Program-made: the position numbers
Source: a virus
Taxonomy: Duplodnaviria > Heunggongvirae > Uroviricota > Caudoviricetes
Direction: 5' to 3' (one strand)
Length of the DNA stretch: 43,624 bases
Virus record (IMG/VR): IMGVR_UViG_2869924733_000007
Coordinates: 1-43,624 of that record
Part shown: piece by piece, positions 9,001 to 12,000 of the stretch
Layout of the letters: each line of letters begins with the position of its first letter
How positions within the stretch are numbered: the stretch's first letter is position 1

Positions 9001-12000
9001 ATGCGATAAATACCATTGTGATGCCATCTTCCCCGCCTTTTTCGTAACGGTTGCAGAATTCCGTATCAAACACGCCTTCTGGCGGGAGGTCATCAACAAC
9101 GGGCAAATTGACGTGAACAGGTTTTTTAAAGTCATCTTCATCGTAGCCTGCATCGTCAATCGCAACAGCACCACGGGAGATGGCAATGGATAATTTTTTC
9201 GCTTCAGCCCAGTAAAAACCGCCTTTAATACCGAGGCGTTTTCTTACTTTGTCATTTTTTGCTTCGTAATACAGTGGGTAAACTTGTTTATCGGTGCTCA
9301 TTGTTTTTTAACCTCAACTCATATTCAGATTGCATAAAAGAAACGAACTGATGATGCGATATGAGAGAGTTCTTTCAGTCGTTGATAACTGATACCGTAT
9401 TTCTTGTCAGCCTCTTCAATGCGAGCTGTGAGTAATGCAATTTCTTTAATGGCACATACACAACAATCAAATGTTCTCAGAACGTAACAGCCATCAATAA
9501 TTACCGTGACGTTTTCTTTTTGGGAAATCTGAATGAAACTATGTAATGTATTCCCACATTTAAATTCGGCGAGAGAATCGTTAATAACATCAAGTTCAAT
9601 TTCACATTCAATAATACTCATTGCTGTTTCCTTTTTTAAGGTTGAGTGAATCCCTGCCATTGCTGGCATAAATTCAGTTTCGAATATTCAGTTAATTAAA
9701 GTTCGTGTGCCATCTGGTCTTTTTCGGCACAGATTTCACTACAATATTTGCGTTTCTTTTTCCTCATCATGGTTCCGTGCATGTAAATAAGTTCAGCAGT
9801 GTAAGCCTTATCAGGGCTTACTTGTCTGTCACACAGGCCATAAGCACAGGGAATTAAATCGGGATCACCTTTCTGCTGGAGGGTTTTTTTGATTATCCAT
9901 AACAATTTTTTGATTCCGGTGTGTGTTATGGTCTGCTGAGGTGCAGAGGTAAAACAATAATCAAGCATAGGGTTCATATCCGTAGCTCCATTTTTATTTT
10001 AAAGAAAGTAATTGTTCCACAGTCATATTTTTAATTGCGCCCCGGTTAACAAGAGTCCATCCCTGTTTTTCCAGATAAAACCGGAAAGTCTCCAGGGTAC
10101 AGACCAGTGCGCCATCAGGAACGGTTTCGGTGAATTCGACATTGCCGAATTTGTCGAAGTGAACAACCAGAGTGCGACCATCACCCGGAATCATCTTGTC
10201 AGCAGGTGGGGTGTTATTCTGGCGCAGTTCGGCCTCCATGCGGTCGAACTCAGCAATGTAGGCTTCCTTGAATGCGGCGGCTTTTTTGCCAGTGAAGCCC
10301 ATCACCAGGAAAACGAAGCCGTTTTTGGTGATTTGGTACATTGGGAGTTTGCGCCCGGTTGAGTCGGTGTATTCGCTCGCCTCAAAATTGAGGGCAGTAA
10401 ATTTATCTGAGCATTCAATATTTGCGATGGCACGTAACACATTGTCGTGTCGTTTGTGGAAGAACTCTGCAACCGCAACAGACGTAGTGACAGCGCGACC
10501 GTTTTCTACGGTTACACAAGGGTGAGAAAGGGTAGTAGCCATGATGGCAGCCTCCGCGATGAATTTGATTAACTCACCACCGGAGGTAGCAATCTCATGG
10601 GTGGTGAGACGTACAGGGTTGCTACAACCGGTCATCACGGAACCCGGCCAGTCTTGCGACTGCCCCGCACGCCCCACCATAATTTGAATGTGGCTGTGCA
10701 TTACGCATAAAAAAACCGCCTGAGCGCGGTTATGCGCCGTGAATGACTTCGGGGTAGCAATCCCGGCACCCGTTTTATGAGGTGCAGGTGCACTATAATT
10801 CCACCCGTTCTGGTTTTCAATAGCTACATTCAACATTTTCTCTTTCCTTTCATCACCGAAGTGAACTTTGTTGATGCGGTGCCTGGTGCCTCCAGGTGAC
10901 GTTAACCAGTTAATAATTAACGCCGGAATAAGGGATTTTCCTTACTGTTTTAACTGTTCCGCGTGCGCTGAGCCGCATTCACCGCATCACAAAATTCACT
11001 TTAAAAAGGGCGGACATCAGCCAGCAATTAAACCGATGCCGCCAACTGGTACTTCACACAGCAATGTCGTTATTTACAACCGGAGGCGCACTCCCACCAT
11101 TTAAATTTAACAGACAAGACCGACTCTTTATGGATACCGGAAATGCGCCTTCGTGTTGTGCCCGGTTTTATTTCACCACCTCCGGGCTTTGGTGGTATCT
11201 TTACTGAAGTTCTCGCACAACCAGTAAGGAAATGAATATGCCAACGTATCTCGCCAGAGTAGAACTATATAATGCTGAGCCAGAGGATTACGAAGGGCTT
11301 CATAAATATATGCTCTCACTAGGATTCAGGAGAACGATCCCCCATGGAGATGGTTCGTATAATCAACTCCCGGACGGAACTTATGTTTCCGAAAAGGGCG
11401 GTGATATTTATCAAATTCGCAGCCAGATATCTGACTATGCAGACCGACTATCCGGGTATCGCGCGTCTGTTTTTGTTTGCGAATTCAGTCAATGCGCATG
11501 GTATTTATACCCCGCCAAGACCCGGTGAATATCCTGCACGGCCTTCTGCTTTGTAGAAGGCTTCTTCGCTATCATAATCGCCAGATTCCAGCGCTTCTTT
11601 AGCCAGCCAGATGCGTGCCCCAGTGCCTGCATTTGGCTCCAGTTGCTGGAGGCGTTTTGCATCTTCTGGGAGTAGAGCGATAACGTGTTTTAATTCTGTC
11701 TCGTTCATTTTACTCACCTGAATGTCTTCCCAACCAACGACGTGCGCCAGCTTCGGTTTTAAACGTTTTGCTTTTGGTATACGTCATGGCGGTGAATGTG
11801 CCGTCCTGGTTGGGGAACACGCCGTACACCAGAGATTCGTTGTTGCCAAGATCGATAGTATTCATGTTGACCCCATTTCCCCTTAACGCCGGGGTAGCGG
11901 AACTGTTTGCTGAGAACACCGTGCGGTGTCTTGATGAATGAAATTTAGAATAACCTAAGGTGGGTGGTCAAGATTTTTATGTAGAAAAACCTAAGTTTTT

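Follow-up and report, generated by a model that had tools for sequence, protein, structure and literature searches.

The region upstream of a Rha-family gene in the Caudoviricetes record IMGVR_UViG_2869924733_000007, whose 43,624 nt were analysed as a whole and are referred to here as the window, raises the question of whether it encodes the N-terminal part of a longer protein or a regulatory RNA that controls the gene behind it. The original prediction had read this region (module A) as a promoter, a structured leader and a c4-like antisense RNA with target boxes, arranged by the logic of the P1/P7 immI system. Our analysis revealed that module A is an ordinary intact copy of the c4/IsrK antisense cassette known from P1 immI, P4 CI and Gifsy-1, a kind already held in Rfam; as a further copy of this type of RNA immunity cassette, the locus adds nothing new in kind. 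As to its function, module A very probably acts as a P1-type antisense lock, in which the C4 RNA would block the Shine-Dalgarno (SD) sequence of rha and an upstream copy of the target boxes, a1/b1, would relieve the block. The coordinates of all features are collected in Table 1.

All of the predicted elements (promoter, hairpins, box 1 in two copies, box 2, terminator with its U7 run and an element of about 80 nt) were found where they had been placed. The promoter matched the consensus at 10 of 12 positions and was the sole promoter-like site returned by the promoter scan on the minus strand within 10450-11250. Its position is kept among homologues, and transcription is predicted to start at about 10785, where the Rfam isrK model likewise begins; in Gifsy-1 the homologous start, deduced from published mutation numbering, coincides with the beginning of the Rfam isrK match there. 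This covariance model (RF01394) recognised the 77-nt RNA of module A over its full length with 64.8 bits, against a gathering threshold of 50, and both the promoter and the U7 terminator were conserved in homologues at the sequence level. Box 2, present as predicted, was revealed to be longer than had been supposed, extending with one bulge to form b1, whose duplex with the b' loop of C4 has an energy of -16.8 kcal/mol. A hairpin followed by a T-run (11013-11040, minus strand), which resembles a terminator and lies about 200 nt ahead of the cassette promoter, might serve as an insulator against an upstream ydfA/B-like operon; the consensus scan returned 2 terminator-like sites against 1.0 expected, so that the signal is weak.

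The element of about 80 nt was identified as a C4 antisense RNA (RF01695), with 79.0 bits against a gathering threshold of 45 (E = 5.6e-14), model positions 1-87 covered and zero non-canonical pairs. Its predicted fold (-44 kcal/mol, z = -3.95), for which the minimum free energy and centroid structures were identical, displayed the architecture of the family: a long closing stem, GGUGG.../...CCACC, that surrounds one hairpin capped by a tetraloop, another with b' as its large loop, and the single-stranded segment a'. Based on alignment to the annotated 77-nt P1 c4, the mature RNA is predicted to span 10678-10600 (79 nt). The 5' flank, UUAU-GG, is the same as in P1, and an unpaired CCCA extends beyond the closing stem (...CACC-A-CCCA), which bears out the CCA-like 3' end claimed at the outset. 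Within this RNA, CCGTGA (10640-10635) is, as had been noticed, the perfect complement of box 2, and GTAGCAA (10625-10619) that of box 1.

The window contains two copies of box 1, GATTGCTACC, where 0.12 would be expected, and the core of the second copy, a2, pairs with a' over 7 bp. The box-2-like site described as fused to the SD was present, and its pairing turned out to be better than claimed: b2 TCATCGCGGAG and the C4 loop UUCCGUGAUGA form 11 consecutive pairs, 2 of them G-U, with an energy of -20.4 kcal/mol, and this duplex takes in the GGAG of the SD. The 9-bp hairpin CTCACCACC/GGTGGTGAG, in whose loop the second box 1 had been placed, does exist in the sequence, but uses the 3' strand of the C4 closing stem as its 5' arm; the search pattern described below set the alignment columns of this hairpin, and covariation there is uninformative either way.

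The covariation of the boxes was then assessed across homologous cassettes, which were collected from 119 viral contigs with a search pattern fixing only the ends of the closing stem. A fold filter left 66 unique cassettes with 46 combinations of b' loop and a', comprising 40 b' and 21 a' variants. The boxes occupied constant positions, C4 being preceded by a1 at about 82 nt and by b1 at about 64 nt and followed by a2 at about 4 nt and by b2 at about 35 nt, and in essentially every cassette b2 lay on the SD of the next gene. Comparison of cognate with permuted duplex energies gave z values of -10.7 for b1, -16.4 for b2, -13.5 for a1 and -12.6 for a2, and permuted targets were as low as cognate ones in 0 of 20000 permutations for all four box relations; for the b boxes, reliance was placed on this permutation because the b loops vary in length and register.

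The helices were further examined in a MAFFT alignment of 43 cassettes, in which the structure was written from module A and pairs were counted against shuffles and against slid partners. Across the structure, 94.6% of the cells were paired, compared with 80% in shuffles and about 40% with partners slid. Both sides had changed in 6 of the 7 pairs of the a1:a' helix (96% of cells paired) and also in 6 of the 7 pairs of a':a2 (94.6%). In the C4 stems, 16 of the 27 pairs examined had changed on both sides with 97-100% of cells paired; hairpin 1 covaried at 5/5 pairs, and the closing stem at 10/17, the outer seven being fixed by the search pattern. IsrK hairpin 1 covaried at 6/7 pairs. The larger alignment that had been named as a check on the original prediction was thus clearly in its favour, with strong covariation for the C4 stems, a1:a' and a':a2, and with b':b1 and b':b2 resolved by the duplex-energy permutation. 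An additional helix, CGCAUA/UAUGCG (10731-10736 with 10704-10709, minus strand), encloses the hairpin of the IsrK terminator together with the U-run; both sides had changed in 3 of the 6 pairs of this helix, and 84% of cells were paired. This helix, which overlaps the 3' flank of b1, could be formable only in read-through transcripts.

The a and b specificities reassort. Four viral loci (L003, L018, L052 and L099) contain all 4 combinations of the a' sequences AGTGCAAA and AGTTCCAA with the b' sequences GTCCTTTGTAG and TTGGTTGAT, and the exchange of a single key needs three crossovers or a coordinated change at three sites, because the boxes are ordered a1, b1, b', a', a2, b2. About 25 further cassettes with matching boxes were found in Enterobacterales and Vibrionaceae genomes; the degenerate-pattern genome scan gave mostly chance matches from unrelated phyla, and about 25 of 120 loci passed the C4 fold filter. 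The cargo families behind 31 cassettes were Rha (10), Bro-N (7), ORF6N (5), P22_AR (2), AntA (2), the derepression family (2) and KilA-N (1), so that the cargoes appear, judged by family, to be mostly of the antirepressor type. Of 5426 complete E. coli genomes, 4641 contained related sequence, the median copy number being two and the maximum ten. No exact match to a 112-nt stretch of module A was found in species-representative genomes, and the best match among complete E. coli genomes was 95.8%.

For module A itself, the sequence, structure, homology, covariation and collinearity described here are direct observations, and they suggest the following course of events. Transcription would start from the one promoter at about 10785, and most transcripts would end at the intrinsic terminator as a 77-nt IsrK-type RNA that displays a1 in a hairpin loop together with b1. 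Read-through transcripts would carry C4, then a2 and b2/SD, then rha. From this longer RNA, the C4 of about 79 nt, with its tRNA-acceptor-like closing stem and CCA-type tail, would be excised, RNase P being expected to generate the 5' end. Its b' loop and a' would pair with b2 and a2 on the rha mRNA and cover the SD, so that the Rha regulator would be kept off in the lysogen. The upstream a1/b1 would bind C4 at the same surfaces and so compete with the mRNA, both in cis as part of the precursor and in trans when free as IsrK; more IsrK is therefore proposed to relieve the block and to allow the antirepressor-type protein to be made. Specificity would reside in the variable a and b boxes, for which reason modules A and B should not cross-react. 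Antisense repression (P1/P7), RNase P processing, a1:a' pairing and IsrK activation (Gifsy-1) have all been demonstrated in relatives, and it is by this analogy that we infer a lock operating at module A with Rha as an antirepressor.

Citron and Schuster reportedly described trans repression by c4 of P1/P7 in 1990. That c4 represses in trans in P1/P7 is established and is summarised in PMC12197685, and a passage of PMC5499578 cites RNase P processing of c4 and CI as well as the role of the P4 CI RNA as an RNA immunity factor (Forti et al. 1995, as cited there). For Gifsy-1, Hershko-Shalev et al. (2016, PMC4825925) reported that translation of anrP increases over 100-fold when IsrK is supplied in trans, and that a processed RNA, STnc1160, whose length is about 80 nt, requires the isrK promoter. 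By Rfam, isrK of Gifsy-1 (34316-34240 in our contig L124) is adjacent to C4 (34214-34131), which lies inside 'orf45'. When positions are counted from the start of the isrK match, the compensatory pairs published for Gifsy-1, G28/C162 and G31/C159, fall on a1:a' (UUGGCGU with ACGCCAA), and the AUG within the conserved UUAUGG junction turns out to be the first one of orf45 (+107).

Several points nevertheless weigh against the proposed lock. Among the Rfam models named beforehand as a check, C4 and isrK passed in module A, and C4, c4-a1b1 and isrK in module B, but c4-a1b1 (RF03163) scored 20.6 bits in module A (E = 0.006), below its threshold of 46.7; this model is narrower, and the same element is covered by the isrK model there. 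In Gifsy-1, the cis mutation G28A in a1 raises expression from 4 to 93 units, a derepression that would not be expected of a pure decoy; constitutive STnc1160 failed to counteract IsrK toxicity; and anrP translation was reported to depend on orf45 translation (PMC4825925), a feature that is not conserved in module A or in most cassettes. The original label of a1/b1 as decoys is an interpretation, with which the cis a1 mutations of Gifsy-1 sit badly, since they derepress instead of tightening repression.

The G28A and STnc1160 results keep both cis-folding and P4-like termination alive as alternatives or as additions to the lock. In the switch published for Gifsy-1, the read-through mRNA is folded into an inactive form by pairing of a1/b1 with a'/b' in cis and is opened in trans by free IsrK; the excised C4-like fragment would then be a by-product, and translation of the short open reading frame (ORF) across C4 would be required to reach the cargo. 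A switch of this kind acting alone is backed by the Gifsy-1 genetics and probing (PMC4825925) and is compatible with the a1:a' covariation, which suits pairing in cis as well as in trans. For the module A leader by itself (10536-10612, minus strand), moreover, the predicted fold joins CCUCCG to the SD CGGAGG, and CCAUGA to the region of the start codon (-30.6 kcal/mol, z = -4.1). However, this SD- and AUG-sequestering fold was not conserved, with 60.8% of cells paired against 58.3% in shuffles, a weak negative since the alignment is poor there. Furthermore, an orf45-like ORF ending at the cargo ATG was present in 2 of 44 types only, the RNase P cut expected by P1 homology falls inside the orf45 AUG, and trans repression by c4 is established in P1/P7. 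The boxes a2/b2 covary with a'/b' as strongly as a1/b1 do and b2 is always on the SD, for which the cis model has no need; this equal constraint argues against a purely cis model, and we consider it unlikely. Control could alternatively be transcriptional as in P4, with C4 acting on nascent a1/b1 and a2/b2 to cause premature termination, at the IsrK terminator or through Rho downstream, so that the rha mRNA would remain incomplete. The isrK-like and C4 elements also occur in P4, where the CI RNA (seqB) has been described as acting on seqA and seqC to bring about termination, the covarying helix at module A brackets the terminator, and IsrK raised a transcriptional fusion of Gifsy-1 8-fold. The corresponding translational effect was far larger, at 139-fold (PMC4825925), and the placement of b2 on the SD in essentially every cassette points to a translation block, against such an account, which we hold to be improbable to a similar degree; translation block and termination can nonetheless coexist, because polarity can follow translation block.

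Two further explanations concern whether the module is an RNA element in working order at all. The 280-aa ORF (9994-10836, minus strand), annotated by RefSeq as 'Rha family' in E. coli relatives with no noncoding RNA, might be a true Ash-Rha fusion protein whose leader is conserved because it is coding. Residues 14-104 matched Pfam PF10554 (Phage_ASH) with 63.6 bits against a gathering threshold of 26 (E = 2.7e-17), and PHROG families take in the extension as well; the Ash match spans exactly the IsrK, C4 and leader stretch. The NCBIfam Rha model TIGR02681 covers residues 8-109 of the 182-aa Rha and begins at residue 106 of the 280-aa ORF, leaving the 98-aa N-terminal extension covered by no NCBIfam model. 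Variability by codon position was flat in the leader (0.181/0.184/0.159), compared with 0.224/0.175/0.318 in the Rha body, the third-position excess being confined to sequence downstream of ATG 10542. Of 44 types, 30 lack an open cargo frame across C4, whose lengths of 78-85 nt do not keep to multiples of three, and the variation that does occur is compensatory in RNA helices; by its closed frames and the flat codon-position profile of the leader, the region matched by PF10554 does not behave as coding sequence. The frame was open in 9 of 11 Rha-type cassettes, which was discounted as coding evidence since the stop-like triplets of the b' loop share one register and are not independent. In P4 (contig L122, 8168-8584, minus strand), the Ash match lies on the CI RNA, an RNA immunity factor, inside an obsolete 'cI' coding sequence whose C-terminus is Icd-like. 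The Ash profile gave zero matches to translations of the P1 c4 RNA and of Gifsy-1 orf45, and the argument for an artefact thus rests on P4, the frame statistics and the codon-position data. Taken together with the promoter, transcription start and U7 terminator inside the ORF, these data make a genuine fusion protein very improbable, and the extension seen by Pfam, PHROGs and RefSeq is probably a translated-RNA artefact spread through the databases. The original view that the extension is untranslated is accordingly well supported upstream of the C4 AUG, where the promoter and terminator lie, and no coding constraint was detected; it may be too strong further on, because translation of a tagged version of the homologous Gifsy-1 short ORF, which starts at the conserved UUAUGG, has been observed (PMC4825925), so that some initiation at AUG 10680 on unprocessed transcripts is possible. 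Finally, the cassette might be an inert relic: the Rac-like prophage around it would be defective, and the cassette itself would have ceased to be expressed or to matter, as the IS-rich window and the disruption of module B by an insertion sequence (IS) would allow. Module A is, however, wholly intact, with canonical C4 pairs, perfect boxes and a full-length Rha nearly identical to its homologues, and related cassettes abound in complete E. coli genomes, so that decay of this kind seems distinctly unlikely.

The translated IsrK and C4 region (10543-10836, minus strand) was also matched by PHROGs 995, 821, 6928, 3960 and 29966.

As claimed for the paralogue, the boxes of module B differ from those of module A and match one another, with TTGGCGT/ACGCCAA (UUGGCGU) and TCGAAAC/GUUUCGA (UCGAAAC). 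Its c4-a1b1 match (22036-22088) reached 52.9 bits, which passes the threshold, and its C4 scored 68.7 bits; the isrK match (22049-22138) passes as well, although its 3' part runs into the IS and is spurious. Within the IS block, an IS30-family transposase (23041-24192) splits an IS3-family element (orfA 24149-24517, orfB 22138-22956). The block leaves the promoter and a1 on one side and the terminator, C4 and ORF6N gene on the other, while the intact homologues L014 and L048 are uninterrupted at this point. The cargo begins MTVQISVKNLSP, which is close to the Gifsy-1 AnrP N-terminus MTTQISVET. Cross-pairing between the modules was weaker than cognate pairing at b2/SD (-13.4 vs -20.4 kcal/mol for C4-A and -7.1 vs -8.9 for C4-B) and at 7 of the 8 box relations overall; the exception was b1, where C4-A with the b1 of module B gave -13.5 against -13.2 for C4-B, a value that rests on a reconstructed upstream sequence still holding some IS tail. 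Four tRNA genes (25541-25848, plus strand) lie directly downstream of the ORF6N gene.

Table 1. Features of modules A and B in the window
Feature	Coordinates	Strand	Basis or remark
Sigma-70 promoter of cassette A	10820-10792	minus	TTGAAA 10820-10815, 17-nt spacer, TATAGT 10797-10792
IsrK-type short RNA, 77 nt	10785-10709	minus	Rfam isrK
IsrK hairpin 1, GCACC/GGTGC	10785-10766	minus	sequence
a1 hairpin, CGGG-ATTGCTAC-CCCG (also written CGGG-AUUGCUAC-CCCG)	10765-10750	minus	carries box 1
Box 1, GATTGCTACC	10762-10753	minus	upstream copy
a1 core, TTGCTAC, in 8-nt hairpin loop	10760-10754	minus	complementary to C4 a'
b1 (box 2 extended), GTCATTCACGG (GUCAUUCACGG)	10747-10737	minus	complementary to C4 b' loop, one bulge
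Box 2, ATTCACGG	10744-10737	minus	upstream copy
IsrK intrinsic terminator	stem 10731-10714, T7/U7 10715-10709	minus	terminator scan
C4 antisense RNA gene	10684-10597	minus	extent of Rfam C4 match
b' loop, GUUCCGUGAUGA	10643-10632	minus	second C4 hairpin, stem 10648-10627
a' single-stranded stretch, UGUAGCAA	10626-10619	minus	C4
Box 1, second copy	10594-10585	minus	same sequence as upstream GATTGCTACC
a2 core, TTGCTAC	10592-10586	minus	6-8 nt past C4 3' end
b2, UCAUCGCGGAG	10562-10552	minus	overlaps rha Shine-Dalgarno GGAGG 10555-10551
Rha-family gene, 182 aa, putative regulated cargo	9994-10542	minus	ATG 10542-10540; Pfam Phage_pRha
Module B 5' remnant (promoter, hairpin 1, a1 hairpin, first half of b1)	22013-22094	plus	c4-a1b1
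Module B promoter	TTGACG 22013-22018, 18-nt spacer, TATATT 22037-22042	plus	sequence
Nested IS block, 2487 bp, inside b1	22095-24581		AAA target duplication 22092-22094 and 24582-24584
Module B 3' part (rest of b1, terminator, C4 24640-24724, a2, b2/SD)	24582-24775	plus	Rfam C4
Module B cargo, ORF6N-domain gene	24776-25333	plus	Pfam ORF6N

Elsewhere in the window, Rfam matches were obtained for the RalA antitoxin RNA (3324-3502, plus strand), a marker of Rac-type prophages, for the SraC/RyeA-SdsR/RyeB pair (463-607, both strands) and for the Shigella small RNA CssrB (40141-40323, plus strand). From the CssrB match and the IS load, a Shigella-like host is suspected.

Beyond this locus, what is treated as protein in Ash (PF10554), in several PHROG 'transcriptional regulator/repressor' families and in the long RefSeq Rha ORFs may in fact be the IsrK-C4 RNA cassette in translation. 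The cassette may also be a portable two-key address lock, with at least 21 a types and at least 40 b types that reassort freely, and where it is present in several copies, an RNA-coded network could set which co-resident prophages derepress together; we give these readings about even odds. The lesson for annotation would be that RefSeq, Pfam and PHROGs read an RNA cassette as a protein domain in most E. coli and Shigella genomes. The comparative data also argue for P1-type trans repression at lambdoid IsrK loci, for which the published model is mainly cis, and the dozens of orthogonal, reassorting specificities would amount to a natural set of programmable translational locks, possibly forming a layer of cross-talk among prophages.

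The link between IsrK-C4, P4 and P1 was published in 2013 and 2016, that of IsrK/C4 to seqA/CI appearing in PMC3632133, and the analogy with P4 seqA/CI was noted in the Gifsy-1 paper (PMC4825925). With respect to P1, the reading of module A by immI logic was borne out: the GenBank record of P1 gives the order P2c4/P1c4, a1, b1, c4 (77 nt), a2, b2 and icd, with spacings near-identical to those of module A, a four-way alignment of P1, Gifsy-1, P4 and module A is collinear, and Rfam and covariation agree. P1/P7 immI and module A thus share the promoter, a1 in a hairpin loop, b1, the terminator-like hairpin, c4, a2 and b2 on the SD, all at the same spacing, and P1 and module A further share the 5' junction and stem UUAU-GGUGGGGCGUG, the three-part fold and a ...CCACC/CCA-type 3' end. 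They differ in that the first regulated gene of module A is the Rha-family gene itself instead of a small icd ORF coupled to ant, that module A has a single promoter and no recognisable C1-type operator, that its boxes, and hence its specificity, are different, and that its host element is a lambdoid, Rac-like prophage and not a plasmid prophage. In Gifsy-1, IsrK and C4 are adjacent as well; a1:a' has been verified there by mutation, and its IsrK forms short and read-through isoforms. Its cargo is, however, ORF6N instead of Rha, its short ORF over C4 ends at the cargo ATG, whereas that of module A is fused in frame to the cargo, and it lies downstream of Q, whereas module A occupies the early-left region of a Rac-like prophage. 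Downstream of isrK-anrP, Gifsy-1 has isrJ and a tRNA, where the ORF6N gene of module B is followed by its four tRNA genes. In the satellite phage P4 (L122), isrK (8692-8615) precedes C4 (8507-8420) in the same order as in module A, but the distance from the IsrK-like element to C4 is about 110 nt instead of 24 nt, the downstream ORF is Icd-like, and P4 is described as acting by premature transcription termination.

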